The notes under the pieces are model-generated. The model was not told where the DNA came from. It saw nothing but the letters and a program-made list of their open reading frames with translations, and ran no database searches. Below, piece after piece: positions 14,015 through 27,267 of a stretch of DNA of 32,000 nucleotides. The translations under genes and the position numbers were made by a program. The DNA is from Kiritimatiellia bacterium (lineage in GTDB: Bacteria; Verrucomicrobiota; Kiritimatiellia; SLAD01). The DNA lies in the NCBI GenBank assembly GCA_007134735.1, contig SLKG01000037.1, forward strand, positions 65,286 to 97,285. Reading direction: 5' to 3'. Within the stretch, counting starts at the first letter, position 1, and each line of letters opens with the position of its first letter.

Positions 14015-15874
14015 TCAATCCGTCAGTCCTTCCAGCCAGATCATCCATTGGGCCACGTCACTGCCGTATGGTATGCCTGATATCTGTTCCAAGGCCTGGG
14101 ATGCGGAATGCCGAACCCTTGCGTCCGGGTCTTCAAGGAGAAGGTTGATCAACGGTTCTGCCGCCTGCAGGCTGCCTGTTTTCCCAAGTGCTTCAGCGGC
14201 GCGCAACCGGACCCAGCGATTATCATCGTCCAGGCTTGAAATCAATTCAGCGGCCGCCAGCTCTCCCAGGTTCCCCAATGCTTCGATGGCGGCATTTCGA
14301 ACGCCGGCGTGCCGGTCTTCCAGGGCGGCAATCAACGGCGGTACGGCGCGGATATCGCCCACTCGGCCCAGTGCCTCCGCCGCGTATTGCCGGACCCTCC
14401 GGTGCCGATCGTCAACCGCGGAAATCAAGGACTGTATGGCCCGTTCATCTCCGATTCTTCCCAGCGCCTCGGCGGCATATTGCCGAACTCCGGCATCATC
14501 ATCCTCGAGCGCGGAAATGAGTTGTTCTACCGCGCGTACCGCGCCCATTGTTCCCAGTGCCTCGGCCGCCCGTTCCCGAATATCCGAATCGGGGTCATCC
14601 AAGGCCAGGCTCAGTCGCTCGATTGATTCTTCACGTCGCCTTTCTTCTTCCAGTGCTCTTTCAATAGCCTCCTCGGCCCGGGCGATTTGACCGGCGGCGT
14701 CCGTCCGTTCCGGGTTCAGATCCAGCAGCTGCCCGAAGGTCTGTATGGCGTCCTCGTACTCCCCGGCCCCGTATTGTTCCATGCCGGCGGCAAACAAAGC
14801 GTCTTCCTGTTCCTTTTTTTTCCGGGCTTCCATTTGTTCTCTGAATGCCGCCTTCGCTGAAGTCATCTGTTCGGCCGCATCCGCTCGATCCGGATTCAGA
14901 TCCAGCACCCGCCCGAAGAACTCCATGGCCCCCTCGTAATCCTCTTCGGTGTAACGTTCCATGCCGTCGGAAAATAACCGGTCCTTTTTCGCCTTCTGTT
15001 CGCGCTCCTCAATGGCCGCTTTCGCCGAAGTCATCTGTTCGGCCGCATCGGATCGATCCGGGTTAAGGATGAGCACCCGCTCAAAGAGCTCCATGGCTTT
15101 CTCGTAATCCTCTTCGGCGTAGCGCTCCATGCCATCGGCGAACAACGCGTTTTCATTCTCTACCGGATCCGCCCAATAGTGTAACAGGGCCCATCCGATG
15201 CCCAGGCTCAACGCGATCAATGCCGCCAGCGCCATGCCGGCATTGACCATTTTGCGTTTGCGCATCCTGTGACGTATGGTGTCGGGGACCGTGGAGCGAT
15301 CCGGGGGCGGAGGAGGCAGTCGCGGTCTCTTTACGCCTCGTTCGTCGAGCACTTTGATAATTTCCCGCTCGACTCCGTCGAGTATTTCCTTGCGGATATA
15401 TCGCCATCCCTTTTCGCTGTCGATAAAATCGATCAGCGGAGTCGGTTTGCCGGGCAGGATTGTGCGGAAGGAAACAAATTCTATTTTTTCCCAGGCACAG
15501 GGCTCGACAAGAATGGATACCAGTTTGAGTTCATTATTTTTGACCCGCTCGCAAATGCGCGGAAATTCTACCGTCTGGATGAAGTCGGAGTTGAGGAACG
15601 CGCTGCTGATCAGTAGTATGGCGATATCGGCCTGATCGATTTCCCGCTCGATGCGCTCCTTGAAATTCTGGCTCGGGGTCAGATCTTTCGTGTCATACCA
15701 GAACACCGTGTGGTAATAGCGCTTGAAAGATTTGGCCAGCCAGGGAATGAGCGCGAATTCGCTTTCGTCATCGGGCACCCACCGCTTGCCCTCGTCCCTG
15801 TATCCCAGATAACGGCATTCCTCGCGGGCATAACTCACGAAAATGCGTATTTCCTGCGCTGTTTCCTCGGTCAT
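14015..15874 (-). CDS. TIR-domain membrane protein with TPR-like and HEAT repeats
   Basis: - aa 8-175: TIR-like (IRIFVSYAREE..., DIAILLISSAFLNSDFIQTVEFPRI).
- aa 200-234: basic cluster RHRMRKRK followed by a TM helix.
- aa 244-415: three TPR-like units of 56-60 aa.
- aa 431-600: five to six 31-aa HEAT/PBS-lyase-type repeats (VRQYAAEALGRIGDERAIQSLISAL).
- Start: GGAGG lies 7 nt upstream of the ATG. Confidence 0.85.
   Translation of the reverse strand: MTEETAQEIRIFVSYAREECRYLGYRDEGKRWVPDDESEFALIPWLAKSFKRYYHTVFWYDTKDLTPSQNFKERIEREIDQADIAILLISSAFLNSDFIQTVEFPRICERVKNNELKLVSILVEPCAWEKIEFVSFRTILPGKPTPLIDFIDSEKGWRYIRKEILDGVEREIIKVLDERGVKRPRLPPPPPDRSTVPDTIRHRMRKRKMVNAGMALAALIALSLGIGWALLHYWADPVENENALFADGMERYAEEDYEKAMELFERVLILNPDRSDAAEQMTSAKAAIEEREQKAKKDRLFSDGMERYTEEDYEGAMEFFGRVLDLNPDRADAAEQMTSAKAAFREQMEARKKKEQEDALFAAGMEQYGAGEYEDAIQTFGQLLDLNPERTDAAGQIARAEEAIERALEEERRREESIERLSLALDDPDSDIRERAAEALGTMGAVRAVEQLISALEDDDAGVRQYAAEALGRIGDERAIQSLISAVDDRHRRVRQYAAEALGRVGDIRAVPPLIAALEDRHAGVRNAAIEALGNLGELAAAELISSLDDDNRWVRLRAAEALGKTGSLQAAEPLINLLLEDPDARVRHSASQALEQISGIPYGSDVAQWMIWLEGLTD
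14075..14584 (-). repeat. Intragenic 93-nt periodic repeats encoding HEAT-like units
   Basis: 31-aa periodicity: DIRERAAEALGTMG..., VRQYAAEALGRIGD..., VRQYAAEALGRVGD..., VRNAAIEALGNLGE..., VRLRAAEALGKTGS..., VRHSASQALEQISG. These are coding repeats, not a CRISPR array. Confidence 0.75.
14630..15145 (-). repeat. Intragenic tandem triplication (units of about 168-180 nt) encoding the TPR-like units
   Basis: Long near-identical nucleotide blocks. For example, ctcgtaatcctcttcggcgtagcgctccatgccatcgg (about 15100) matches ctcgtaatcctcttcggtgtaacgttccatgccgtcgg (about 14930). Likewise gaagtcatctgttcggccgcatc occurs at about 15030 and about 14860. At protein level the units read LFADGMERYAEEDYEKAMELF / LFSDGMERYTEEDYEGAMEFF / LFAAGMEQYGAGEYEDAIQTF. 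Confidence 0.8.
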
Positions 15875-16038
15875 GGCCGCCCCTCCGGGGAACGTCCCCC
15901 GTCCTTACTGCGTCAGGCGGATTAACCCCGCCTGCAAGCGATTTGCACTACTCGTCTTTATTGCCTCCGCCAAAGCTGATCATGAATGAGAAACGGGGAA
16001 GAAGCAAGCAAAAGCCGTGGTGTATTTTTTGAAGTAGA

Positions 16039-16455
16039 TCATGCTTCATTTTGCATGAAATTTGTAGCATGGCGCCGCATGAAGTCCCCCACTGTTCCGC
16101 ATAAGAGGCGGTTCCCCATGTCCGGAAACGCCACCCATTCACCGGCGTCATGTTCTTCGCTTAACCGGAAATGGCCGCCGGTGATGCGGGCGTTCATGCA
16201 GAGGAGGACGACGTGTGCGGAAGGCATTTCGAATTCGGTGGCGCCGGCGAAGCCGATGACCTCAATTTCGTAGCCGGTTTCCTCGAGGGTTTCACGGAGA
16301 AGCGCCGTGACGAAATCCTCCCCGTGATCGACCTTGCCACCGGGCCATTCCCAGCATCCGGCGAAGCGTTTGTTGATGTTTGATCTTCGTAACAGCAGGC
16401 TTTGCCGGGCATCGTTCTGGATGATGGCCTTGACGGCCAGCCAATACGATTTCAT
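16039..16455 (-). CDS. NUDIX hydrolase
   Basis: Complete Nudix box G-x5-E-x7-RE-x2-EE-x-G is present in GGKVDHGEDFVTALLRETLEETGY. The ATG 16455..16453 lies 1 nt after the TGA (16459..16457) of the upstream gene. An AAAGG SD sits inside that gene's 3' end. Confidence 0.9.
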   Translation of the reverse strand: MKSYWLAVKAIIQNDARQSLLLRRSNINKRFAGCWEWPGGKVDHGEDFVTALLRETLEETGYEIEVIGFAGATEFEMPSAHVVLLCMNARITGGHFRLSEEHDAGEWVAFPDMGNRLLCGTVGDFMRRHATNFMQNEA

Positions 16456-16456
16456 G

Positions 16457-19033
16457 TCAACCTTTCTTGTGTTGCTTGGTTGAGGTGGGTTTGCGCGCCC
16501 GCTTTTCGGATCGCCTCACTTCCAGGCCCGCCCGGGCCAGAATTTTCGGAAATTCCTTGATCGCATTTCGGTCGTAATGCCGAACGTCATCGAGGCCGGG
16601 ATCGGACCAGGGGATCAGGAAGGGATGCGTCTTGTTTGCGTCGTTGCGGATCTGCCCGTAACGCCAGCCGGCCCGTATGCGTTCCACGTTCCAGCGGCCG
16701 TGTTCCATTTCGGCCATCCGCTCGATTTCTTCCTCGGTGAACACGATGTCCGCCCTTGGCCGTGCGGCCGGCCGGACGATGAATCCGCAGTTTTCCAGGA
16801 TCCGTCTCGCGTACCGGGCTTGTTCCCGGTTGGCCTGGCGGTAGGTTTCGTCCATCGCTTCCCATGGGCGCATGTTGGCGGGGAGGCGATGGGCGCTTTC
16901 CTCCACATAGCGGGCGTGAAAGGCCTGAGCCATCCGTTCCGTGGTGTTGGTGTCCAGCTCGCCGTCTCCCGGTCTGAGCAGGGCGTGGAAAGAGGCCCGG
17001 TCCATGGGAAACGGCATCAGATTAGGCACCCCGGTCCAAAGCGAATCCCGGTTGAGCGCGTCGGCGCTTCCTCCTGATCCCTGCGCGCTGACGATGCGGG
17101 CGCCCAGCGCCAGGGCTACCCGGTATTCCACCGCGCTGATGGGGCCGCCGCCGAATCCGATGCAGATCACGTCTTTTGGGGCGATGCCCTTGTCGAATAG
17201 GTCCTGCCAGCTTTTGAGGACCTGGTCCGGCGAGAAACCGGCCTCGCCGCAGGGCACGAGACGGTCATAGCGTTTGTCTTTCACTGCGTCGTGCGGCAGT
17301 TGGTCCGGGATATAGCCGATCAGTTCAAACCGTTTCTTTTTCGAGCGGTGGAGATCGGCCGCCGTTTTGCCTGCGCATCCCGGCACACCGGATTTGGTTC
17401 CACCGGAAATGACCAACCCGTCAAAAGTGGTTAATGCCTCGCTGATCAACGGCCGGATGATTCGGGTTATCTTTTTATCCAGCGATGCGGCGCCGCCGGC
17501 CAGGACGATGGCTTTGGGCGGCAGGGCGCCCAGCGCATCCGTATCCGCGCCGGCCCGGTCCGCCAGATCCAGTAGATCCAGCACCCAGCGATGATCCGCC
17601 GGGGCCTCCTCGCCCACATGCAGTCGCTCCACCCATTCCCGTTCCACCGCGAGCGCGTCCGTCGGAGCGCAATGAACGCCGGCCAGACAATAACGAATGC
17701 CCCGCGCATAATAACCCAGCGCATCCAAGGGTTGATCGAGCAACAGATGGAGGCGGCCGGCCGTAAACCAGGCTCGGGGCAGTTCGATCCCGGCTTCCGC
17801 ATGGCTTTGGCAGGTACGGATGCCCCCCCGAAGGGCGGTACGCATGCCCGCCGGCCGGGCATGGTCGCGTCGGCTGTAGATTTCGAAACCGAGCATATCG
17901 GCGAGGTAGTAGGGGTTTTCCGGTTCATGTTCGTGGGCCTGTCGGTGGTGTTGACGGGCGGCGGGCCATTCACTCCGCAGGGGTTCCAGCGCCCAGCCCA
18001 GCCGCGAGAGTGCGCGCGCATGCAGGCTTTCGCGTTTTCGCAGGTGCGGCACGAATGGGCATCCGCGTTCCCGGCATAGGGCCTCGGCTTTCTCCAATAA
18101 CGCCCGGCCGCGCCGGTATTCCTTCGATTTCGGTTTCCCACGATAAATCTTGCAGAGCGCGAAACCCAGATCCTGAAGCATTTCACAGCGGTTGGCGCCG
18201 GATGCCTTTTCATACGGCGCCAGTGTTCGCTCGACGGCCTTGTAATCACCGCATGCGGCGTGGAGCCGGCCCAGCGTCAACGCCAGGACAGGGCGTTTGG
18301 CCGTGTTGGGTTCATGATCCAGAATCAATTGTTGTACCTGGATTTCCCGCAGCACGGCATCCCGGGTTGCGTAGGATGCGTAATTGGCCAGCATGCCGTC
18401 AATGTCCTGCGCCATACGGTTATAGTTGCGGTCGCCTTCCTCCATCAGGGCGGCGAGCAGGTTGCCGGTCCGCTTCACCTCGGAGGACAGTTTGAGTGGA
18501 TTCTTGTAAATCCGGTCATGTAACGTGTCGGCCCAGGCATGTTGAAGCCAGGTGCGGACTTGAATTTCCGCCCGCCGGTTACCGATCGCTTGGATTTCAT
18601 TGGGCTTGAACCCGAGGGCAGCCGCCTTTTTCGGTATGAGCCGCACGATATAGTGCATGTCGCGATATCCGAACCGGTCGTCTCCCAGATTCAACCCTTT
18701 TTCGTCGGCCTCGAGGATTTCGAAATTCGACTCGATAAACGTGCGCACGGCCCGGACTTGTTCCAAGGTTTGTACGATCACCCGCGCTCCGCATAAATCG
18801 GTCAGATCGTGTACCGGATCCTTGTATTTTTGATGTTTCCGCACCGCCTTTTCGGCGAAACTTGATATCGTTTTGTCCCGTGCTTGAACCAGCGCATCGG
18901 GAATTGAAGCCGCGCAGGCGTGTTCCAGTATTCGGCGCAGAGCAACGGCGTGGGTGGCGTATCGCGGTTGTTCCCCGGCATACAATTTGATTTGACGCCG
19001 GTGTTCTGTCGGAGTGATACCCTTGGATGCCAT
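16457..19033 (-). CDS. RelA/SpoT-domain nucleotide pyrophosphokinase fused to TPR-like linker, SLOG (LOG/LSDAT-like) sensor and RyR-type C-terminal module
   Basis: - aa 25-180: RelA/SpoT synthetase motifs ARDKTISSFAEKAVRK, DLTDLCGARVIV, GYRDMHYIVRL and AEIQVRTWLQHAWADTLHDRIYK.
- aa 230-500: helical TPR-like region.
- aa 505-665: Rossmannoid SLOG-like motifs IVLAGGAAS, VISGGTKSGVPGCAG, LIGYIP, ICIGFGGGPISAVEY and QGSGGSADAL.
- aa 698-835: RyR-like region (MRPWEAMDETYRQANREQARY and EMEHGRWNVERIRAGWRYG..KTHPFLIPWSD).
- Start: I chose ATG 19033, which has AAAGGAGGGA 7 nt upstream. The track's 19156 start is a TTG. Confidence 0.85.
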   Translation of the reverse strand: MASKGITPTEHRRQIKLYAGEQPRYATHAVALRRILEHACAASIPDALVQARDKTISSFAEKAVRKHQKYKDPVHDLTDLCGARVIVQTLEQVRAVRTFIESNFEILEADEKGLNLGDDRFGYRDMHYIVRLIPKKAAALGFKPNEIQAIGNRRAEIQVRTWLQHAWADTLHDRIYKNPLKLSSEVKRTGNLLAALMEEGDRNYNRMAQDIDGMLANYASYATRDAVLREIQVQQLILDHEPNTAKRPVLALTLGRLHAACGDYKAVERTLAPYEKASGANRCEMLQDLGFALCKIYRGKPKSKEYRRGRALLEKAEALCRERGCPFVPHLRKRESLHARALSRLGWALEPLRSEWPAARQHHRQAHEHEPENPYYLADMLGFEIYSRRDHARPAGMRTALRGGIRTCQSHAEAGIELPRAWFTAGRLHLLLDQPLDALGYYARGIRYCLAGVHCAPTDALAVEREWVERLHVGEEAPADHRWVLDLLDLADRAGADTDALGALPPKAIVLAGGAASLDKKITRIIRPLISEALTTFDGLVISGGTKSGVPGCAGKTAADLHRSKKKRFELIGYIPDQLPHDAVKDKRYDRLVPCGEAGFSPDQVLKSWQDLFDKGIAPKDVICIGFGGGPISAVEYRVALALGARIVSAQGSGGSADALNRDSLWTGVPNLMPFPMDRASFHALLRPGDGELDTNTTERMAQAFHARYVEESAHRLPANMRPWEAMDETYRQANREQARYARRILENCGFIVRPAARPRADIVFTEEEIERMAEMEHGRWNVERIRAGWRYGQIRNDANKTHPFLIPWSDPGLDDVRHYDRNAIKEFPKILARAGLEVRRSEKRARKPTSTKQHKKG

Positions 19034-19705: not shown

Positions 19706-22700
19706 CTATTGAGGAATGAAGCGAAGCCGGATAAATAGGGGTTCGGAAAAAACCCATTCGGGTATTCGTATGCGGATTTCTTCGGTTTGATCGTCCCCCG
19801 TGGGGACCGGCGGATCCCGGTGGTAGACCGGCAAGGTTTCCAAGGCAACCCACGCGTCGTCCAGCTCCCGCGCTACCTCGACTTGATATTCCACACCCCG
19901 CTCCTCATGTATGAGCCGCCGATAGGTGTACGTGAGGTATTCCGTTTCCCCGTCCGTCATTATTCCCATCCGGGGCAGGGCGGGCTCGATCGCGTCGGTA
20001 CGATTCAGCCCGAGCGCATATTTGGCCAGATTGGCCCAGCCGTCATCATCCGGCATCGCATCCGGACCGCTGATGGCCGGGTCCTCCAGTTCCTCCGGAT
20101 CGAAATTATCGGACAACCATCGTTCATGGGGCAATTGCCCCCCTTGAAACCGCACCCGCATGATCCGGCCGGTGACCGTGCCCTCCACAAAATCCGCCAC
20201 CGCCCTTGCGGTATCGACCGTGAAGGTCAACGGTCCGGTGTATTCCGAATAGCGCCGGCCGTTGAATCCGACCGTCCCGTCGGAATCACGCACGTAATAC
20301 ACAGCATGCGCGCCCTTCATGTTCGCAAGAAAATCCGTGTCCTGGTCCGTAAAGAACCCGCCGCGGAATACATCATCCGGATGGAAGGTTTCCACGTCGA
20401 AATACAGGGCCACCCGATTGCCCGCATTGAAGTCATGTGCAAACGGATCCGCCCCATTGAGTCTCAGGAGCGCGTTGCCGCTTTCCACCGTCTGCGCGTA
20501 GGCCGGGGATCCCGGACGGCCGAATCCGAACGCGTACCAGAGTCCGTTAATGGAATCCGCTGTAAGAATGGACGATTCGAGAGCCACCTCACCTGAGCCG
20601 CTCAACAGCCCGGCCGTGCCGCTGCCCGACACATGGGTGCCGGGTTCAAGGATCACCGGCGCGGTCAGGTCGCCGTGTAGATGCACGGCGCCGGCTTCTA
20701 TGCGAAGCGTTCCCGTGAATGTATCGCCGCTTCCCGCCAGTCGCAGGATCCCGTCACCGGTTTTTGCGATCTCGTGCGCGCCTTTCAGCGCCCCCGAAAC
20801 GGCGAGGGTGTTGTTCGATCCCTCCACGTGCCATCCGCTGTCTCCCCGGACAATAACGGGTCCTGCGATGCGGGCGTAATGGGTTCCCGGTCCCGGCTCA
20901 TACCGCAGGGCGCCGCCGGAATCCGGTCCTCTCCCGGTCAGCTTCAACGGCCCACCGAAGGAATGGATCCGGGGATCATTTCCGGAAACCAGGCGCAATT
21001 GGGCCCCGGCTTTAACCAAAATCTGCGTTGATGCCGAAGGTGTGGCCGGTTCCGTTATTTGCAATACGCCGCTTTCGATCCGGGTTTCTCCCGTATAGGT
21101 CTTGCCCGGTCCAGTCAACGACGCCGTTCCGGGTCCGTCCTTGATCAGGGCCCCCGGCCCGCTCCAGCTTTCGCGCAACCGCAGTCCTCCGTATTCCGCA
21201 TGACCGCCCGTCGACTGCACTGTGAGACGCACGTCGGATTCCAGGAAAACCCCGCCCTGAACCCGGAATTCCACAAATCCCGTTCCTTCATCGGTCACGG
21301 TGACCGCCGCTTCATGGTTCGTGGAGGCAAAGTGCAGAGACGCGTGGCCGCCGGTATCCTGAATGCGATTGCGTCCGCCGTTTCCCGGTCTGTGTACGAT
21401 CAGGTGGCCGATCGTAATGTGATCGTTCAATTTCACGTCACGGCGATCGTTCGCGGGTTGGCGTATCACGGCCACGGTCGATGTGCCGTCGGGATAGGTA
21501 TCCGTGGTCCAATTGATCGCTTCGGCCCACGTGGCATCGTCCTGGGCCAACAACACGGGGATGTCGGAACCATTATCCGGAAGGTGGGCGATCGGATTCC
21601 CGTCGGCGGTCATGGTACCCGGCAGGCCCTCCTCAAAGACCGACGCATCCAAGAGCGCGCCGTCCGCGAGCGAGCGGACTTCGATGCGCCGTACCCCCGA
21701 GGACAGCGCGTTGGGGATCAACGCGCCCCAGAACCGCGGGTTTGTCGCGACCAGTTCCTCGTAGAAAAGCGCATAGCGTTCGTCGATGTCGCTCCCTGTC
21801 ATCTCGATGGGCGTGGCGGCCAGAGGACGGGAATGGCCCTGCTCGTCCTCGTACAGAACGACGAAATGACCGGGATCGAATTCCGATTTCCCCACAAGGC
21901 CCGTGGCCTCGTGGGCGCCCTCTCCGAATTCAAGGATCTCCACGCCGCCGGTTGTCGTCAGTAGGTGATGATAGGCCGTGCCGTCCGCGCCGTCGTTCAG
22001 CAGGATCCGCATGTTCAACGTGTTCCCGGGATCGAAGCGCCGGTTGCCCGTCGGTTCCGCGATAAACCATCCTTCGTACGTGCCGTCCTCATCCGTTACA
22101 AACGTCCCGTGCCGCTCGTCCAGGTCATCCGGCATGAAGCGCGGCGCATCCGTGTTGCGAATGAACGCATCGCCGTTTGTCTTTACGAAGATCATGTTGC
22201 CCGCACCGTCCTGATCGGGCGGATCGTCGAATGCCGCAACCCGGTTTCCATAGCGATAGATCGTGTTCGTTTCCAGCCCTTCCAATTTCAACCGATAGGC
22301 ATAGGGCACGCGGTTCAGGTTGCTGCCGTCCCGGTCCTGTTCCCCCTGGATAAAACGGGGCAACAGAATCTCCGTGAGGCGGACCGCGGTGAACCGGTTG
22401 CCGGCCGCCGGCTCGGTGTCTTCCGCTTCCGCCGACAACTGGAAGGCGCCCGCCCCGTCACCGATGTGCAGATCCCCGAAGAACGCAATCCCGTTGACGG
22501 CTTGTACCGAGCGAGTTCCCGAAAGCGTCCCGTCGCCGATAAGGGTGAGTTCGACGATACCTGCGAAATTGGTTACGATCATGCCTGCGGCATCTACGGC
22601 GCGAACGACGACCAGGCCCAACGGTTCCCCGCTCTGAACCACCGACGGATACGTGTCGAACAGTAGGTGGGCCACCGGTCCGGCCGGTGCGCACGTGACG

Positions 22701-25700
22701 GTGATGTCGTCCAACCGCAATTCCGCCCGTGGGCCCGTGTCGCCCCAGGCCCGGTAATATCGCCAGAGCAACTGAACATAGGGTTCACCCAGTGCCTCGG
22801 ACGGTAATTCCACCGGGCCGAACGCCTCGACATGACCGGCCACGTCATTCCGGACATATTCGAGGGGGCGATCCCGGCCATCCCGGACATCCATGAATGG
22901 GCCTTCCGTTCCGATCCGGTACTGCAGGCGAATCGCATAGGTCCGGTCATTGGGCGTCACCGTGCCCGCCATCCAGGCCACGCGACCCTCCGTTACCCCC
23001 GTTGTATCCACGGCCATCAGGGCTCCGCCCAGGTCGCGCTCCCGTCCCGTATTGATGAAGGAAAGACCCTGTTCCCCCAATGCATTAATCCGGGTGCGGG
23101 CCGTGTTGTTGTAGGGATAGCCGTGGCTCTCGTGATCATCCGGATGATAGTTCCCGGTCTCCAATGAATAGGCGTGGGACAGGGGAGTCCCGGCTCCCGG
23201 ATCGCTCTCCTCGCTCTGCAGGAACAGCATGTGTTCGGGATAATGACCGTCGGGTTCATCCGGATGCCATTCACTAAATACATAAGGCCCATTCGACAGG
23301 GCATGAGCCGATGGGTAAACCAGCAGATCAAAGGACGTCTGTGTCGGGGGATGTACATGATCGTCCGCCGCGATCGTAACCGTGGCGTTGCCGCGTTGAA
23401 GCGGATATACGGTCAGGGTGGATCCGTCAACCCCGGGATCCGCGACGTGGATATTGTCCGCGTGGGCGGTAAACGTCACGCCGTCCTTCTCCGCCACATG
23501 GAAAACGTTGGAGAGATTCACCACGGCGGGATCGCCGTTCTCGATCAGATACCGGCGCTCAATCGGCTCCTTCAGTCGGGGCGGCAGGTTGGCGGCATCC
23601 CACGCCCGCCCTTCCGCGGTAATATTATCGAAGCGGTGGTTTCCCGCCGGGCCTCCGTGGCCTTTCTCGAACGTAATGCGCAGCCCGAACTCGGCGTTGT
23701 TGTTCACCTCCGGAATTCCGGAGAAATCAAAGGTGTGCCGAGCGGGGATTTCGGTCACCGTCAAGCGGTCCCAATGCTGGTAATGGGTTCCATCAACCGT
23801 GTATTCAATCACCTGTGTGCCGGCCCCGGAAGAGGACCGGCGGGTTTCATAGTGCACAACCACATATTCGAAACCGGGTGTAGGCAATGCGATATGGATT
23901 TCCGCGTCCAGCGGACGGTTCACACGCAGATGGGAGCCGGCCGCATCGCCAAAGCGTGCATTTTCCCCGCTGAAATGCTCTCCGGTTCCGGGGAGGATGT
24001 CCGTGTGGGGTCCCGGTTCCACGGTCAGGCCGGACCCTTCCGCGAGCGAATAAGTCGGTCTCAGCAGATTCTTCTCGTCATTAAAATTCCAATAGTGGAT
24101 CAGGGAGGGTCGGGTCTCCAGTCCGCCCAGGGCTTTTACCGTCGGCGTACTCCAGTGTCCGTGCGCATTTCGGGTCCGGGCGGTCAGCAGGGCCGGGCCT
24201 TCCACGGACAGGGGCGCCGTATATTCCGTGCCCGCCACGCCTCCTCCCGGTGCGCGCGGATCGCGGCCGTCGAGCGTAAAGAAGATCGACCCCCCCGACG
24301 GACTTTCGAACCATATTTCAGAACCGTTCCCGTCGGCCACGGGCGGCGGCGGCAACATTCCCTCGTCTTGGCGTCGACGATCCATCCAGTTGGCTCGCGG
24401 GATTACCCAATCAATCAAACGCTGAATCTCATTCGTGTATTCATTCCCGACATATGGCCTGTCGGGCCACCGATCCAGGTTGCGGGCGGCGGCGGATTCA
24501 ATGGTATCGCAGGACCGGTTGATTTCTTCACCCATCGCACGAATCAACTCCTCCAGCGCTTCATCCGAGAAAACCGTTGCCCGCCATTCCGCCCAGCGAT
24601 CGTAAAACGCCTGCCTGAAATCCGGATCCAGGCACAGCCAGTCCCACCAGTCATCAGAGTGAAAGTAGGGGGTGGAATCTCTGGTTCCGTACCACGTGTC
24701 CCACCGGGAATCGCGCGGGTCATGAGATCCCATGGACCGGTCGAAATCCCAAATCGGACCGGCCTGCAAAAGCTGATTTTCGGGTTTGTGGAAATATGCG
24801 CTTAATCGAAGGCCATCAACGTTCTTTGCAAACGCGTTCAACAGCAGGTGGTCCACCCAGGAATCCCGGTCGATGTAATCCAGGTAATCCCGGGATTGAA
24901 AATTGCCGTCGCGATCCAAAACCAAAGCGTCCTCAAACGCCTGCACATACGATACGACGTAATCAACCTGCCGGGAGTGAATGCCGGCTTCGACATAGTT
25001 CGGATAGGGACCCCCATCCAGGCTGTGTATCTTGGGACGGGAAATCACGAGAGGGAAGGAATGAGGTTCGTCCGGGATGCGGCGATCGGTTTCCCACTCG
25101 TATTCGTCCACGGCGGCACGATCAATCTTCAGTATATAACCACCAGTCCAGGGACCCTTTACCGCTACGTCGATCGGTCCTTCCGGCGGGACTTCGTCCC
25201 GGTTGATATTGTGATGTCCCAAGCGGCCCGGCCCCTGCTTGATCCGTTCGATGATGGCATAGACCCCCACATAATCCTCTTCCGTTAAATCCTCGCCGTC
25301 ATGATTGACGTACACTTCCACAAAACGCGAATCGGGCGCCCAGCGTCCGCTTCGTCGGGACAGCTCATAGATCAAAGAATTACGAATAATGGCCCTGTCG
25401 TACCCATATCCCGGATAGAAAACCCAATCCGATTCGGGGCGCATCCCAAGGAGAGCCAAAGAAGTATCCCGGTCATATTCATCCCGGAATTCCACCGAGT
25501 ATGGTTTTTTGGGCCAATGCATCGAGCTGGATCCGCGATGACGGAGACCCTGTCGGACGGCCAGCTCCGGCCTGCGGGTTAGCGCGCTGACGCCTTCGGG
25601 GTCCCGGTCGAACAGAAAGAAGAACCCGTCGTGGCGGGGTTTCCCTTCCGGGGTCCGGGTCCGGTCATTTCGGTGCGGTCCCACCGGAGTGATTTCCGCG

Positions 25701-26629
25701 CCCCGGGCGTCCATCACGACGATCGGTAGAAACGAACGCCGGTCCAGCAAGTCGTCTCCGAGTCGTATGTAATGCCGGGTGGCCGGATGACCGGCGGCGT
25801 CGTGCGCATCAAAAATGCGGGCGCGCAACAACGTGGTCTTCGTCAGCGTCAAGGGTTGTTCGTAGAGGGCGGATTGTTTGTCCGGAATGGAACCGTCCGT
25901 GGTATATCGAATCACTCCGATGTGGTCTGCGCCCGCCAACGACACCGTGACTCGGTTGGTAAAGGTGCGCGACGGTTCCGAAAAGATCACGGTTTCCGAT
26001 AACAGATGACCGCCCGGTCCCGCATTCTCGGTCCCCGGGGTGGGGACGGCAAACCGGGTCCATGTATGCGGATCGTCCTGTTTGCGTCCGTATGAAAAGT
26101 CCCGCGGCATCGGGAGCCATGTAACGCGATCGACCACCTCGCCGTTCGGCGCCGTCAGCAGAACGGTATCGCCGTCTTTCCCGATGCTGAAATTGGCGTG
26201 GAGTGGATGGGCGGGATCGGTGCGATTTTTCCGGGAGGCCCAAACGATTAGATAGCCACCGCTTTCGATCACGGTCTGATCGGGGAACACCCACCTGAAC
26301 GGACTGATATCGTCGTCGGAAAGCCCCCAGCCGGAAAGATCCACCTCATCTTGACCCGGATTGTACAATTCGATCCAGTCCGGGTAATCTCCGTCTTCAT
26401 CCTCAAGGGTTGCCCCGTTTGAGGCCATTACTTCGTTGATCCGAACCGCTTGGGCCTGCTGTCCTGGCGTAAACGCCAGGATACATAAGGCACTCAAAAG
26501 CCCCAGCCCCGCCGGGAACCCCCTTGTTCTTCCTGTCCGGAAGATCGCGATAACCGCACTCCTTGTCCGTACCGGCCAACCGTTAAGAACCAATTGTAGA
26601 ATATACACCTCAAAAGGGCGGCGCTCCAC
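19706..26629 (-). CDS. Giant secreted/surface protein: lamin-tail domain, CotH kinase-like domain, chitobiase-C/Ig-like domains, autotransporter-associated beta-strand (PATR) repeats
   Basis: 2307 codons.
- Signal-like segment: GFPAGLGLLSALCILAFTPGQQAQA.
- aa 61-175: LTD (VRINEVMASNG...DYPDWIELYNPG..VDLSGWGLSDD).
- aa 215-275 and 770-825: CHB_HEX_C-like (IRYTTDGSIP, IFFTLDGRDP).
- aa 300-750: CotH (KKPYSVEFRDEY..., IIRNSLIYELSRRSG..., VGVYAIIERIK).
- About aa 1760-2040: PGTASLTGPGKTYTGETRIESGVLQI and GILRLAGSGDTFTGTLRIEAGAVHL repeats.
- Start: the track start is a GTG, so the exact start is uncertain. Confidence 0.9.
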   Translation of the reverse strand: MERRPFEVYILQLVLNGWPVRTRSAVIAIFRTGRTRGFPAGLGLLSALCILAFTPGQQAQAVRINEVMASNGATLEDEDGDYPDWIELYNPGQDEVDLSGWGLSDDDISPFRWVFPDQTVIESGGYLIVWASRKNRTDPAHPLHANFSIGKDGDTVLLTAPNGEVVDRVTWLPMPRDFSYGRKQDDPHTWTRFAVPTPGTENAGPGGHLLSETVIFSEPSRTFTNRVTVSLAGADHIGVIRYTTDGSIPDKQSALYEQPLTLTKTTLLRARIFDAHDAAGHPATRHYIRLGDDLLDRRSFLPIVVMDARGAEITPVGPHRNDRTRTPEGKPRHDGFFFLFDRDPEGVSALTRRPELAVRQGLRHRGSSSMHWPKKPYSVEFRDEYDRDTSLALLGMRPESDWVFYPGYGYDRAIIRNSLIYELSRRSGRWAPDSRFVEVYVNHDGEDLTEEDYVGVYAIIERIKQGPGRLGHHNINRDEVPPEGPIDVAVKGPWTGGYILKIDRAAVDEYEWETDRRIPDEPHSFPLVISRPKIHSLDGGPYPNYVEAGIHSRQVDYVVSYVQAFEDALVLDRDGNFQSRDYLDYIDRDSWVDHLLLNAFAKNVDGLRLSAYFHKPENQLLQAGPIWDFDRSMGSHDPRDSRWDTWYGTRDSTPYFHSDDWWDWLCLDPDFRQAFYDRWAEWRATVFSDEALEELIRAMGEEINRSCDTIESAAARNLDRWPDRPYVGNEYTNEIQRLIDWVIPRANWMDRRRQDEGMLPPPPVADGNGSEIWFESPSGGSIFFTLDGRDPRAPGGGVAGTEYTAPLSVEGPALLTARTRNAHGHWSTPTVKALGGLETRPSLIHYWNFNDEKNLLRPTYSLAEGSGLTVEPGPHTDILPGTGEHFSGENARFGDAAGSHLRVNRPLDAEIHIALPTPGFEYVVVHYETRRSSSGAGTQVIEYTVDGTHYQHWDRLTVTEIPARHTFDFSGIPEVNNNAEFGLRITFEKGHGGPAGNHRFDNITAEGRAWDAANLPPRLKEPIERRYLIENGDPAVVNLSNVFHVAEKDGVTFTAHADNIHVADPGVDGSTLTVYPLQRGNATVTIAADDHVHPPTQTSFDLLVYPSAHALSNGPYVFSEWHPDEPDGHYPEHMLFLQSEESDPGAGTPLSHAYSLETGNYHPDDHESHGYPYNNTARTRINALGEQGLSFINTGRERDLGGALMAVDTTGVTEGRVAWMAGTVTPNDRTYAIRLQYRIGTEGPFMDVRDGRDRPLEYVRNDVAGHVEAFGPVELPSEALGEPYVQLLWRYYRAWGDTGPRAELRLDDITVTCAPAGPVAHLLFDTYPSVVQSGEPLGLVVVRAVDAAGMIVTNFAGIVELTLIGDGTLSGTRSVQAVNGIAFFGDLHIGDGAGAFQLSAEAEDTEPAAGNRFTAVRLTEILLPRFIQGEQDRDGSNLNRVPYAYRLKLEGLETNTIYRYGNRVAAFDDPPDQDGAGNMIFVKTNGDAFIRNTDAPRFMPDDLDERHGTFVTDEDGTYEGWFIAEPTGNRRFDPGNTLNMRILLNDGADGTAYHHLLTTTGGVEILEFGEGAHEATGLVGKSEFDPGHFVVLYEDEQGHSRPLAATPIEMTGSDIDERYALFYEELVATNPRFWGALIPNALSSGVRRIEVRSLADGALLDASVFEEGLPGTMTADGNPIAHLPDNGSDIPVLLAQDDATWAEAINWTTDTYPDGTSTVAVIRQPANDRRDVKLNDHITIGHLIVHRPGNGGRNRIQDTGGHASLHFASTNHEAAVTVTDEGTGFVEFRVQGGVFLESDVRLTVQSTGGHAEYGGLRLRESWSGPGALIKDGPGTASLTGPGKTYTGETRIESGVLQITEPATPSASTQILVKAGAQLRLVSGNDPRIHSFGGPLKLTGRGPDSGGALRYEPGPGTHYARIAGPVIVRGDSGWHVEGSNNTLAVSGALKGAHEIAKTGDGILRLAGSGDTFTGTLRIEAGAVHLHGDLTAPVILEPGTHVSGSGTAGLLSGSGEVALESSILTADSINGLWYAFGFGRPGSPAYAQTVESGNALLRLNGADPFAHDFNAGNRVALYFDVETFHPDDVFRGGFFTDQDTDFLANMKGAHAVYYVRDSDGTVGFNGRRYSEYTGPLTFTVDTARAVADFVEGTVTGRIMRVRFQGGQLPHERWLSDNFDPEELEDPAISGPDAMPDDDGWANLAKYALGLNRTDAIEPALPRMGIMTDGETEYLTYTYRRLIHEERGVEYQVEVARELDDAWVALETLPVYHRDPPVPTGDDQTEEIRIRIPEWVFSEPLFIRLRFIPQ

Positions 26630-26769: not shown

Positions 26770-27267
26770 ATGAATCAATATCTTGTGGTGGCGGCGGATG
26801 CGGTTCGCGCCCGTTTCTTTCACCTACAGGGAGCGGATGAGCCGGCCCTGGAATCCGGTCCGAACCTGGTGGAGGACGATGTCCTGTTGAATCCGGAGCA
26901 AGCCATGTCCGATCGGGATGTTTTTTCGGAAAACAAATCCGGGCGAAACCGCACCATGGGATCCTCTCCGCACGGTTACGACGATCATCGCGATAAACAT
27001 GCGGATGAGAATGCCCGGAAATTTGCGCGGTTGATCGCGAAGGAAATTGTGACCCGTGCCGCGAAGCGTTCGATGCGCCATATTGTCCTTTCCGCGGACA
27101 AACGAATGCTCGGTATGTTGCGTCCGCAACTGGATGCCGGACGGCAAGCACAATGGGAAATCCGGGAATGCGCGGCGGATGTCAGTAAATTGGCGCCCGA
27201 CGCCTTGCACCATCATCTTGCCGGGAAGAAGCTGCTACCGCCCCGCCGGCGGCCAGGACCGGCCTGA
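26770..27267 (+). CDS. Host-attachment-protein family (bacterial eRF1-like, baeRF12) protein
   Basis: The family-like layout as I recall it: N-terminal YLVVAADAVRARFFHL, central SPHGYDDHRDKHADENARKFARLIAKEI, then HIVLSADKRMLGMLRPQL. AAAGGAG lies 9 nt upstream of the ATG. Confidence 0.7.
   Translation: MNQYLVVAADAVRARFFHLQGADEPALESGPNLVEDDVLLNPEQAMSDRDVFSENKSGRNRTMGSSPHGYDDHRDKHADENARKFARLIAKEIVTRAAKRSMRHIVLSADKRMLGMLRPQLDAGRQAQWEIRECAADVSKLAPDALHHHLAGKKLLPPRRRPGPA

Follow-up and report, generated by a model that had tools for sequence, protein, structure and literature searches.

Three neighbouring genes on the minus strand of the window (the whole 32,000-nt stretch that was analysed, from contig SLKG01000037.1 of a Kiritimatiellia bacterium) on balance probably form a conflict or alarm module that works with a nucleotide signal and follows a Thoeris-like logic. 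One encodes an 858-aa RelA/SpoT synthetase-solenoid-SLOG-RyR protein, which we label BIG; the others encode a NUDIX protein and a TIR-domain protein. An ORF check recovered all three reading frames where a first-pass annotation of the sequence had placed them, and every domain it had called was borne out by Pfam, an AlphaFold2 model and Foldseek. Its link between BIG and NUDIX and its inclusion of TIR as a domain class also stand, whereas the synteny it expected of the particular TIR gene does not, and the RyR domain had been underused. The literature covered, to which Burroughs et al. (2015) did not belong, yielded no description of this gene set, and the annotation, too, had named no characterised system with this combination. 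The features are as follows:

16457..19033, minus strand: BIG, 858 aa (ORF, three Pfam matches, AlphaFold2 model, Foldseek)
18329..19012, minus strand: RelA/SpoT-type nucleotide pyrophosphokinase domain of BIG, residues about 8-235 (PF04607, motifs, Foldseek)
17549..18328, minus strand: all-helical TPR-like solenoid linker of BIG, residues 236-495 (AlphaFold2, Foldseek, Pfam matches in homologues)
16964..17521, minus strand: SLOG (LSDAT_prok) Rossmannoid of BIG, residues about 505-690 (PF18171, Foldseek, invariant columns)
16496..16951, minus strand: tandem RyR (Repeat1-2-like) domain of BIG, residues about 695-846 (PF02026, PDB matches, Foldseek)
16039..16455, minus strand: NUDIX, 138 aa (PF00293, PADLOC PDC-S07, Nudix box)
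15875..16038, minus strand: NUDIX-TIR intergenic gap, 163 nt (sequence)
14015..15874, minus strand: TIR gene, 619 aa (TIR_2, ThsB1, HEAT_2)
15350-15850, minus strand: TIR domain, residues about 9-175, with candidate catalytic Glu E103
15170-15238, minus strand: TM segment of the TIR protein, residues 213-235 (Kyte-Doolittle peak 2.09 at 213)
Residues 240-619 of the TIR protein: TPR/HEAT region (HEAT_2, E=1.6e-38)

BIG belongs to a large family, widespread in little-studied PVC bacteria, whose architecture (RelA/SpoT synthetase, TPR-like solenoid, LSDAT-type SLOG, tandem RyR) is constant. It includes at least 405 full-length homologues; identity to BIG is 51-74% among the top 120, and mean column identity in an alignment of 32 sequences is 63%. 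We place the start of BIG at the ATG at 19033 because 31 homologues share the same first Met. The SLOG-RyR module is represented by 496 sequences (clustered at 50% identity, E<=1e-30), and a SLOG-RyR-protein kinase fusion among the relatives indicates that the sensor module of BIG is swappable.

The N-terminal domain has the hallmarks of a nucleotide pyrophosphokinase. Residues 52-178 match RelA_SpoT (PF04607, E=2.9e-16), and none of the five synthetase motifs varies among 32 sequences of the family: R52-x-K54-x3-S58-x3-K62; D79-x2-G82-x-R84; Y123-R-D-x-H127; E156-x-Q-x-R160-T161; and H172-x4-K177. BIG thus carries the catalytic Asp (in D-x2-G-x-R) and Glu (in E-I-Q-x-R-T, including Q158) of RSH synthetases, and the domain aligns to RelQ (2be3) with its motifs in register. 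Foldseek on the AlphaFold2 model (pLDDT 84.7, pTM 0.82) matched this N-terminus to RelQ, RelP and CapRel; in sequence comparison, the closest solved RSH enzymes are the ordinary (p)ppGpp synthetases RelQ and RelP, with CapRel matching weakly, so that the homology does not by itself establish a toxic effector role. Long RSH enzymes (Rel, RelA, SpoT) were rejected as an assignment for BIG, which gave no Pfam match to HD, TGS or ACT and for which no NCBIfam model reached its cut-off. Residues 224-494 are modelled as all-helical and match the TPR regions of SPY and OGT in Foldseek, and Pfam finds TPRs in the homologues P0186 and P0144.

The two C-terminal domains are of families that handle nucleotides. 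Residues 509-578 match LSDAT_prok ("SLOG in TRPM, prokaryote"; PF18171, E=7.7e-7, 29.0 bits against a cut-off of 25.4), and residues 508-676 are modelled as a beta-alpha-beta Rossmannoid, whose Foldseek matches are the TRPM2 MHR1/2 domain (8e6v, E=4e-5) and the LOG-family protein TM1055 (1rcu, TMt 0.64, rmsd 3.4 A). A sequence-only search of the PDB with BIG found no SLOG; the gathering score and the TRPM MHR1/2- and LOG-like fold nevertheless place the domain in the LSDAT_prok branch of the SLOG superfamily, and the 505-665 segment, which the annotation had staked on a SLOG/LOG Rossmannoid, models as one. Its invariant columns fall in glycine-rich loops (G544-G545-T546 and G549; G626, G628-G630 and E636). 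From sequence and model, this SLOG is probably of the TRPM2 ADPR-binding type.

Further downstream, residues 768-840 match RyR (PF02026, E=2.5e-13), and sequence matches in the PDB are to the R12 domain of ryanodine receptors and to a Bacteroides thetaiotaomicron RyR. The domain is a tandem, with a degenerate repeat 1 (about 695-757) and a canonical repeat 2 (767-846), and Foldseek aligned it whole to RyR Repeat1-2 (6uhi, 6uhh, 9l9b) over 180-204 columns. Repeat 2 carries H778, W781, H803 and D821, conserved in 41 of 50 orthologues; the Pfam match, these four ligand-type residues and the R12-like fold together identify it as a member of the RyR/R12 family. According to a 2026 preprint (PMC13232231), PF02026 proteins either bind 2'/3'cADPR with nanomolar affinity or cleave it via H75, W78, H100 and D117 (RyDEP numbering), residues that BIG matches at the same spacing. 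Because RyR domains bind or cleave this signal and BIG keeps the four residues, we regard RyR as a sensor candidate at least as good as SLOG. The earlier label of a "RyR-type C-terminus" had the identity right and missed the sensor potential. Moreover, 12 of the surveyed loci hold 14 additional RyR-only proteins (AAA-RyR, TrkA_N-RyR and stand-alone RyR of 120-156 aa), most of which keep the same four residues, as expected for a shared signal.

RyDEP proteins are small viral anti-defence homodimers acting as sponges, and the parts of that preprint covered here describe no host RyR effectors; the BIG RyR, in contrast, is host-encoded, tandem in one chain and fused to an enzyme, and we propose it as a receiver. 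Tentatively, the tandem RyR may be a host-side receptor or processing glycosidase for ADPR-type signals made by TIR or DUF4062 proteins, working with a TRPM2-type SLOG and a Nudix protein and having alarmone synthesis or tRNA pyrophosphorylation as its output. The conserved His/Asp dyad of the RyR could mean nucleotide degradation or processing instead of sensing, as could the LOG-like GGG...E motif of the SLOG. Animal TRPM2 (SLOG/MHR1-2 plus NUDT9H) and ryanodine receptor Repeat1-2 draw on the same LSDAT SLOG, Nudix and RyR repeat families, which are associated with binding of ADPR or adenine nucleotides (Foldseek 8e6v and 6uhh/9l9b). These animal proteins are ion channels, whereas the output of BIG would be a soluble pyrophosphokinase, and the Nudix of the cluster is a separate minimal MutT-like protein, unlike the NUDT9-like domain of TRPM2.

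NUDIX is tightly coupled to BIG. Its ATG lies exactly 1 nt after the BIG stop (TGA-c-ATG), as first annotated, and this junction is kept in a BIG relative of 74% identity although the flanks differ. In a neighbourhood survey of 51 species-level BIG genomes (52 loci), mostly from PVC bacteria, a NUDIX orthologue accompanies BIG in 41-42 of 51 species-level loci and lies within 600 nt, on either side, in 36 of 52. The two are even fused in P0186, P0189 and P0237, in both orders (NUDIX-RelA-TPR-SLOG-RyR and RelA...RyR-NUDIX). The protein matches PF00293 (E=4e-18) and PADLOC PDC-S07 (3.8e-22) and has an intact Nudix box at residues 40-62 (nt 16270-16338; G40-x5-E46-x7-R54-E55-x2-E58-E59-x-G61), conserved in 44 orthologues. 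In NCBIfam and the PDB it is most similar to MutT or NTP-pyrophosphohydrolase types (3grn, 1mut, CTP pyrophosphohydrolase); NudE is matched at E=0.045 and one "ADP-ribose pyrophosphatase MutT" at 2.8e-4. We rejected membership of the ADP-ribose pyrophosphatase subfamily, the nearest models and structures being minimal MutT-like. The annotation had cast NUDIX as a brake on signal or product; the minimal MutT-like type favours clearing of the pyrophosphokinase product and disfavours clearing of ADPR.

This coupling also suits another reading, which we consider distinctly improbable: a toxSAS-type toxin-antitoxin pair with a constitutively toxic RelA/SpoT enzyme, a product-hydrolysing NUDIX antitoxin, and SLOG, RyR and TIR as accessories. 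MutT-type Nudix enzymes do hydrolyse (p)ppGpp, the coupling is tight at the 1-nt junction and extends to fusions, BIG matches PADLOC PDC-S33, and prophages, a phage satellite and plasmids carry stand-alone SAS genes that its RelA/SpoT domain alone matches at 30-37% identity. BIG shares the synthetase fold and all catalytic motifs with toxSAS/CapRel and with the housekeeping SAS RelQ and RelP. It differs from them in being a multidomain protein of 858 aa whose partner is a NUDIX, and its roughly 620 residues of conserved TPR, SLOG and RyR, sensor-type domains, favour ligand gating over constitutive toxicity. NUDIX, present in most loci, is absent from about seven with complete flanks (L003, L005, L008, L010, L012, L028, L041), which is unexpected for an obligatory antitoxin, and we found no mention, in the literature covered, of toxSAS together with Nudix. 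The reading also overlaps the one we prefer, in which NUDIX is the reset.

A second alternative, to which we assign a very low probability, makes the pair a signal brake or insulator: the RyR would act as a RyDEP-like glycosidase turning cyclic ADPR isomers into ADPR and NUDIX would destroy the ADPR, protecting TIR/DUF4062-rich cells from autoimmunity, with a salvage or secondary role for RelA/SpoT. The RyDEP catalytic His/Asp dyad is conserved in BIG, the same loci also contain stand-alone RyR proteins, host-encoded and the size of RyDEP, and NUDIX is coupled to BIG. Against this, six of eight RyDEP homologues with conserved residues bind without cleaving (PMC13232231), the NUDIX is not of the ADPRase type, and the intact, invariant RelA/SpoT motifs would be left unexplained.

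The third gene encodes a TIR-domain membrane protein, as first annotated, with a TIR domain, one TM segment, three TPRs and HEAT repeats. TIR_2 is matched at residues 43-137 (E=2.3e-11) and PADLOC ThsB1 at 9e-14; the single hydrophobic segment is preceded by RHRMRKRKM, which puts positive charges on its N-terminal side. E103 is a candidate catalytic residue, aligning, weakly (E=0.73), to the Glu of "WCLMEL" in L6, and an S...E motif is conserved among the TIR partners of BIG. The 163-nt gap before this gene, noted earlier, is real; within it, a ribosome-binding site, GGAGG, stands 7 nt ahead of the TIR ATG, a hairpin without a T-run lies at about 15914-15935, and no terminator-like or promoter-like site was seen on its minus strand. 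With a gap of this length, the TIR gene is only putatively co-transcribed with BIG-NUDIX.

That the TIR gene is an unrelated neighbour, the unit being BIG and NUDIX only, seems to us hardly probable at all, yet part of the evidence points that way: besides the gap and the gene's own ribosome-binding site, just 2 of 51 loci have an orthologue of this TIR gene, and the BIG relative nearest in sequence (74% identity) lacks any TIR. The expectation that this specific gene would be a conserved neighbour is thereby contradicted. At the level of domain class, however, the association is strong. Fifty-three neighbouring proteins, verified by Pfam, carry TIR_2 (36) or DUF4062 (17), and at least one such gene occurs in 36 of 52 loci (within 1 kb in 23, within 300 nt in 17). 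They number 2.79 per 10 kb in the first 1 kb from the core as against 0.52 per 10 kb at 2-8 kb, a 5.4-fold pile-up (binomial p=1.6e-8), and in about 10 loci no more than 15 nt separate a TIR-type ORF from BIG or NUDIX on the same strand. Proteins with the same TIR-TM-variable architecture are found in about nine other BIG loci, L046 (4 nt away) and L011 (261 nt away) among them, and the TIR domain of L004, downstream of BIG on the same strand, is 56% identical to that of the window. Apart from NUDIX and RyR, TIR-type genes alone recur beside the core: the 147 other neighbours within 3 kb include no recurrent kind, three transposases being the most of any, so that the association is specific and does not reflect the general sharing of an island. 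At this level, then, the annotation's inclusion of a TIR protein in the module is supported. The available flanks lack a TIR-type gene in 16 of 52 loci, and 14 loci have NUDIX without one.

The TIR partner is a swappable class, built as TIR/DUF4062-STAND-TPR/WD40 or as TIR-TM with a variable C-terminus; independent metagenome contigs show the gene order DUF4062-NACHT, WD40, NUDIX, BIG. The C-termini are hypervariable (TPR, HEAT, WD40, FGE-sulfatase, Zn-ribbon), and a conserved effector with such partners is typical of sensor-effector immune systems. One close comparison is type I Thoeris (ThsB TIR plus ThsA SIR2-SLOG), in which likewise the effector is conserved and the TIR partners vary, and where a TIR protein stands beside an effector whose SLOG, as that of BIG would, receives an NAD+-derived cyclic ADPR signal. 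The window TIR protein, with its ThsB1 match and candidate catalytic E103, is ThsB-like under PADLOC-DB v2 (types I-II). BIG itself was rejected as a ThsA effector (SIR2-SLOG or TM/Macro in PADLOC-DB v2): it matched only PDC-S33 and no ThsA model, its SLOG belongs to the LSDAT/TRPM type, and a RelA/SpoT pyrophosphokinase takes the place that SIR2 has in ThsA. The cluster also adds a tandem RyR and a coupled NUDIX, and the TIR partners of BIG are large STAND or membrane proteins, unlike the small ThsB proteins; they match PADLOC families at the level of the TIR domain only. With their TIR_2 or DUF4062 N-termini, NACHT or NB-ARC and TPR or WD40, the recurrent ones resemble TIR-/DUF4062-STAND NLR-like sensors such as the Swarozyc DUF4062 NADase; DUF4062 is a TIR-like NADase making ADPR (bioRxiv 10.64898/2026.05.01.722283). 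The known STAND sensors are self-contained NAD+-depleting executioners, whereas those beside BIG come paired with a distinct sensor-enzyme and a NUDIX. Since such proteins can be self-contained NADase effectors, signalling may not run from TIR to BIG.

Genomic context bears on a further alternative, which we consider unlikely: that BIG and NUDIX are a housekeeping stress regulator, an alarmone synthetase that senses NAD+/ADPR status with its SLOG and RyR domains and adjusts (p)ppGpp-type signalling, the adjacent TIR-type genes being users of the same metabolite pool or coincidental. The window flanks are housekeeping genes (FtsK, PgsA, MscS, L20/L35), and no mobile-element genes were found within 10 kb of the cluster on either side, in line with the annotation. 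Its proposed check for homologues in defence islands came out negative, the 147 neighbours giving no defence-island signal and the loci not being recognisable as such islands. Neither 50,697 phage records nor 72,556 plasmid records contain full-length BIG. The sequence is very highly conserved across phyla and, as judged from the alignments, BIG appears unusually conserved for a defence gene, which counts against a defence reading; the kinship with RelQ and RelP and the 14 loci with NUDIX alone also suit a housekeeping role. The specific pile-up of TIR/DUF4062 genes at the core, often abutting on the same strand, argues against it, as do a genomic location that differs between close relatives and a patchy distribution over species-level representatives of many phyla. 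The paralogous RyR proteins and the kinase fusion suggest a modular conflict-type system, and PDC-S07, which NUDIX matches, is a PADLOC phage-defence candidate family.

For the conflict or alarm module that we prefer, we infer which molecule is the ligand, which way the signal runs, what BIG makes and what the module is for, be it anti-phage defence or some other stress alarm, as follows. The input would be a TIR-type NAD+-cleaving protein, here membrane-anchored with its TPR/HEAT part facing outwards, and in other genomes a STAND NTPase that has a TIR or DUF4062 domain and TPR or WD40 repeats. Once triggered, it would make ADP-ribose or one of the cyclic ADPR isomers from NAD+. BIG would receive this signal with its C-terminal half, through its tandem RyR with 2'/3'cADPR-type residues and its TRPM2-like SLOG with glycine-rich nucleotide loops, and ligand binding would act through the TPR-like solenoid to release the N-terminal pyrophosphokinase. 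With ATP as the pyrophosphate donor, this enzyme would pyrophosphorylate either a nucleotide, yielding (p)ppGpp or (p)ppApp, or the 3' end of tRNA, and so arrest growth or translation. The translationally coupled MutT-like NUDIX would provide the reset, most likely by hydrolysing the pyrophosphorylated product and alternatively ADPR.

If this is correct and the tentative reading of the tandem RyR also holds, bacteria would unite in one operon three ADPR/cADPR-handling modules that are later found in animal TRPM2 and ryanodine-receptor calcium channels. BIG would represent a new effector class for TIR signalling, its RelA/SpoT output linking TIR/NAD+-derived (ADPR-type) immune signals with alarmones, and NLR-like TIR/DUF4062-STAND and TLR-like membrane TIR proteins would be able to signal to a separate enzyme, beyond depleting NAD+. 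The module is directly testable with four purified proteins, and it would offer a tractable soluble system for ligand recognition by RyR and TRPM2-type SLOG domains, bearing on the old debate over how cADPR and ADPR act on the RyR and TRPM2 channels of animals. It would also give bacterial RyR domains their first cellular function, only months after the finding that cADPR isomers are bound by viral RyR proteins.

The first-pass annotation had placed three consecutive open reading frames on the minus strand of the window, and all three are present there at exactly those coordinates:

Features of the cluster and of its first product
16457..19033, minus strand: gene (i), an 858-aa ORF whose product we call BIG
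residues 52-178 of BIG: RelA_SpoT (Pfam, E=2.9e-16)
residues 509-578 of BIG: LSDAT_prok, 'SLOG in TRPM, prokaryote' (Pfam, E=7.7e-7; 29 bits against a cut-off of 25.4)
residues 768-840 of BIG: RyR (Pfam, E=2.5e-13)
16039..16455, minus strand: gene (ii), NUDIX, 138 aa (E=4e-18), with a complete Nudix box at G40-Y62
14015..15874, minus strand: gene (iii), the TIR protein, with an N-terminal TIR_2 domain (E=2.3e-11) and a match to PADLOC ThsB1 (9e-14)

BIG starts with the ATG at 19033, the same methionine that begins 31 homologues; a longer, TTG-initiated ORF also exists. The AlphaFold2 model of BIG, built with 32 homologues as input, is confident (pLDDT 84.7, pTM 0.82), and searching it against the PDB with Foldseek returned a separate match for each region: RelQ, RelP and CapRel for the N-terminus; the TPR parts of SPY and OGT for the all-helical residues 224-494; the MHR1/2 domain of TRPM2 in a structure with dADPR (8e6v, E=4e-5) and the LOG-family protein TM1055 (1rcu, TMt 0.64, rmsd 3.4 A) for the Rossmannoid at 508-676; and the complete two-repeat RyR Repeat1-2 domain for the C-terminus (6uhi, 6uhh and 9l9b, 180-204 aligned columns). 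The proposal that segment 505-665 is a SLOG/LOG Rossmannoid, singled out beforehand as a point on which the annotation could fail, therefore holds in both the model and the fold search. A sequence-only search of the PDB found no SLOG relative of BIG; fold search alone found some. The SLOG/LSDAT class was reportedly defined by Burroughs et al. in NAR in 2015, and that of BIG carries a LOG-like GGG...E636 motif. None of the five RSH synthetase motifs varies within the BIG family, and they align in register with RelQ. BIG is not a long RSH, because HD, TGS and ACT domains are all missing from it (Pfam; no NCBIfam model above its cut-off).

The BIG and NUDIX genes meet at the junction TGA-c-ATG. 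By NCBIfam assignment and comparison with the PDB, NUDIX is of the minimal MutT-like type; we therefore rejected its membership of the ADPRase-type Nudix enzymes, and its probable role tilts towards hydrolysis of a pyrophosphorylated product. MutT-type enzymes hydrolyse (p)ppGpp. The 163-nt gap between the NUDIX and TIR genes contains a GC-rich hairpin of 7-8 bp lacking a T-run (about 15914..15935, minus strand; GCAGGCGG-ggttaat-CCGCCTG), and a GGAGG is located 7 nt 5' of the TIR ATG; a promoter and terminator scan of this gap was uninformative, at the same level as shuffled controls.

The family to which BIG belongs is large and uniform in architecture: at least 405 proteins match, the best 120 of which show 51-74% identity and a length of about 840-860 aa; mean column identity of the family alignment is 63%. 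A genome scan using the single BIG protein as query yielded no confirmed locus. Repeated with alignment A1 (profile-guided, one genome per species), the scan yielded 51 true loci, or 52 counting the window, mostly from Planctomycetota, Verrucomicrobiota, Lentisphaerota, Kiritimatiellia and Auribacterota, with the remainder from Acidobacteriota, Deltaproteobacteria, KSB1 and an Accumulibacter MAG. In one locus (L036, CAVTMS010000009.1) the BIG-NUDIX pair lies in a 288-kb contig that bears the label Candidatus Bathyarchaeota archaeon, which reflects either a binning error or horizontal acquisition by an archaeon.

The window's NUDIX has an orthologue in 41-42 of the 51 loci; the gene usually directly precedes BIG and sometimes directly follows it, as it does in the window. 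The Nudix box is kept in 44 orthologue sequences; three family proteins are fusions, with NUDIX N-terminal to BIG in P0186 and P0189 and C-terminal in P0237; and a 74%-identical relative of BIG keeps the BIG-NUDIX junction in a wholly different genomic context. Because of this co-occurrence, box conservation, fusion and retention of the junction, BIG and NUDIX constitute a real, mobile two-gene core. NUDIX and a TIR-type gene (TIR_2 or DUF4062) occur together in 28 of the 52 loci; 14 have NUDIX only, 8 a TIR-type gene only, and 2 neither. A toxSAS-like toxin with NUDIX as its antitoxin, a reading partly compatible with the Thoeris-like circuit that we prefer, is weakened because about 7 complete loci are without NUDIX, and we consider it improbable. 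Some loci have two tandem NUDIX genes ahead of BIG, or a 379-aa protein of NUDIX plus an unknown domain right after it (L058:12539-13678; L059:8997-9960). Neighbour clusters 'C3' and 'c7' were discarded as antisense shadow ORFs of BIG and NUDIX produced by greedy ORF calling.

The TIR protein of the window has one hydrophobic segment (213-235) with RHRMRKRKM just before it, three TPRs and a HEAT-repeat array. On the positive-inside rule, its TIR domain is predicted to be cytoplasmic and its repeats extracytoplasmic, a Toll-like-receptor-like arrangement. By tblastn, this protein was found in 2 of the 51 loci (L004, at 56% identity, and L019), and no TIR was found with the closest BIG relative. 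The absence of TIR synteny that tblastn implies is misleading: iterated HMMs and Pfam verification reveal that TIR-class partners are common. When all neighbours were clustered without bias, a recurrent cluster of 800-1,600-aa proteins emerged in which, by Pfam, a TIR_2 or DUF4062 N-terminus is joined to a STAND NTPase (NACHT or NB-ARC) and an array of TPR or WD40 repeats, and the iterated HMM searches gave 53 candidates, every one Pfam-verified (36 TIR_2, 17 DUF4062). At least one TIR-type gene is present in 36 of the 52 loci (window included), lying within 1 kb of the core in 23 and within 300 nt in 17; density is 2.79 per 10 kb at 0-1 kb versus 0.52 per 10 kb at 2-8 kb (ratio 5.4, binomial p=1.6e-8). 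In about ten loci a TIR-type reading frame directly adjoins BIG or NUDIX and shares its strand, and two independent metagenome contigs encode DUF4062-NACHT, WD40, NUDIX (1-2 copies) and BIG in series by precomputed annotation. That in this window alone the TIR neighbour is coincidental is very improbable. Aligning small TIR and DUF4062 alignments with hhalign made no link (probability 2%), and the TIR-likeness of DUF4062 therefore rests on 2026 preprints, in which it is a TIR-like NADase making ADPR and active in anti-phage defence (bioRxiv 10.64898/2026.05.01.722283).

About ten BIG partners share the window's layout of a TIR, one TM segment and a variable C-terminus (e.g. TIR-TM-TPR-FGE-sulfatase in L011, TIR-TM-TPR in L042), and gene (iii) therefore represents a class of partners that recurs, and is not a conserved orthologue. 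Members include L011:10796-13186, L042:3267-5375, L046:10581-12011, L004:8746-10080, L024, L020, L037, L044 and the window's own 14015..15874; the single hydrophobic segment follows the TIR by about 60-100 residues, and the C-termini vary (TPR-FGE-sulfatase, TPR, HEAT). Their sequences suggest a Toll-like-receptor-like topology in bacteria. The claim that a TIR protein is part of the module is supported for a swappable class, of which the window's particular gene is not syntenic.

No other gene, whether of defence, mobile or any other type, recurs among the remaining 147 neighbours within 3 kb: they include no more than three transposases and one AbiE pair, the rest being assorted housekeeping genes. 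It is therefore with TIR-type genes specifically that the core is associated, and shared residence in defence islands does not account for this. Placement of the BIG loci in defence islands was rejected on these neighbours and on the PADLOC matches of the TIR partners, which are domain-level only. Proteins of about 370-406 aa (cluster c6) lie directly beside BIG at L020:10538-11650, L026:6004-7221 and L026:11204-12304, and occur also in L011; two of three scanned, both from L026, weakly resemble SLATT_1, SLATT_3 or DUF4231 (E 1e-4 to 9e-4, below Pfam cut-offs), and the L020 member has no Pfam match. SLATT and DUF4231 proteins are SMODS/SLOG-associating 2TM effectors, and c6 proteins may serve these systems as an alternative membrane effector. 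AbiEii-type nucleotidyltransferase toxin genes are found near BIG at L027:7022-8020 (directly upstream), L010:2674-4206 and in L035.

In the phage RyR-domain proteins termed RyDEP, which bind or cleave 2'/3'cADPR, H75 and D117 form a catalytic dyad, W78 stacks adenine and H100 binds phosphates, according to a 2026 preprint (PMC13232231). H778, W781, H803 and D821 of BIG have the RyDEP spacing, with the full pattern in 41 of 50 orthologues, and the RyR of BIG is the probable receiver. Twelve loci encode 14 additional RyR-only proteins, mostly with the same ligand residues (AAA-RyR of about 930 aa; TrkA_N-RyR; stand-alone RyR of 120-156 aa). The SLOG-RyR module has 496 representatives (50% identity clusters, E<=1e-30), and in P0156 it is fused to a protein kinase that replaces RelA/SpoT. 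The RyR His/Asp dyad and the SLOG GGG...E636 could indicate signal processing, not sensing; a signal-degrading brake is, in our judgement, a distinctly improbable account. Stand-alone host RyR proteins of 120-156 aa, approximately RyDEP size and with full H-W-H-D (L018:6724-7083, L026:16579-17022, L037:9941-10408, L045:7830-8255), could be the host's own means of buffering or hydrolysing the signal. RyR and SLOG-RyR fusions (P0156; P0213; L010:11067-12842; L010:14710-17523; L043:5899-8697) are of the kinds SLOG-RyR-protein kinase, TrkA_N-RyR (up to three repeats) and AAA/MoxR-like-RyR (about 930 aa).

Housekeeping genes flank the cluster in the window, and no mobile-element gene lies within 10 kb on either side:

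Flanks of the cluster
one flank: FtsK, an HTH_25 protein, PgsA, MscS, DUF432
other flank: a giant CotH/LTD protein, L20, L35, MlaE

The giant gene (19706..26629, minus strand) is directly upstream of BIG on the same strand, across a 672-nt gap, and encodes a secreted-type protein of 2,240-2,307 aa (LTD, Fn3_assoc, CHB_HEX_C_1, CotH, PATR repeats) that was found in 0 of the 51 related loci. At about 26770..27267 (plus strand), a 165-aa protein with Pfam Host_attach and baeRF_family12 (bacterial/archaeal eRF1-like) adjoins a 167-aa unknown and L20/L35.

With the domain identities, intact motifs, BIG-NUDIX coupling and specific TIR association established, a Thoeris-like circuit is the best-supported model for the cluster, and we lean modestly towards it. 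A triggered TIR-type NADase would cleave or cyclise NAD+; the RyR and/or SLOG domains of BIG would receive the ADPR-type product; the TPR-like solenoid would relay reception to the RelA/SpoT pyrophosphokinase; growth would be arrested by what this enzyme makes, either (p)ppGpp or (p)ppApp or, as with CapRel, pyrophosphorylated tRNA; and NUDIX would reset the system. The original module reading survives in its domain identities, BIG-NUDIX coupling and TIR class, and is amended in that the TIR is swappable, RyR the probable receiver, NUDIX MutT-like, and defence islands absent. Counting against the circuit are the 16 of 52 loci without a TIR-type gene in their available flanks, the unusual conservation of BIG, the housekeeping surroundings, and the phage and plasmid collections, which contain no BIG and only stand-alone RelA/SpoT-domain relatives. 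A physiological alarmone regulator sensing NAD/ADPR is the alternative to be set beside these points, and we regard it as unlikely. TIR- and DUF4062-STAND proteins can also act alone as NAD+ depleters.

The cluster resembles Thoeris in working logic but is not a member, because BIG matches no ThsA model and both effector chemistry and SLOG subtype differ. BIG has the synthetase fold of SAS and toxSAS enzymes, yet it comprises four domains in 858 aa and has a type of partner, NUDIX, not reported for them; it has the RyR ligand residues of RyDEP, but is host-encoded and fused to an enzyme. The cluster combines LSDAT SLOG, Nudix and RyR modules, which are known from animal TRPM2 and RyR channels. 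Our literature searches found no description of the whole combination, of which an earlier, purely computational mention is possible, and nothing relevant on alarmone synthetase with RyR, toxSAS with Nudix, or cADPR with alarmone and Thoeris. The logic of a TIR signal passing to a sensor-effector is known; the effector and sensor set is new. The system is widespread and conserved and would tie NAD+-derived immune signalling to alarmone-type chemistry; it also opens bacterial RyR and TRPM-type SLOG domains to direct tests of function.
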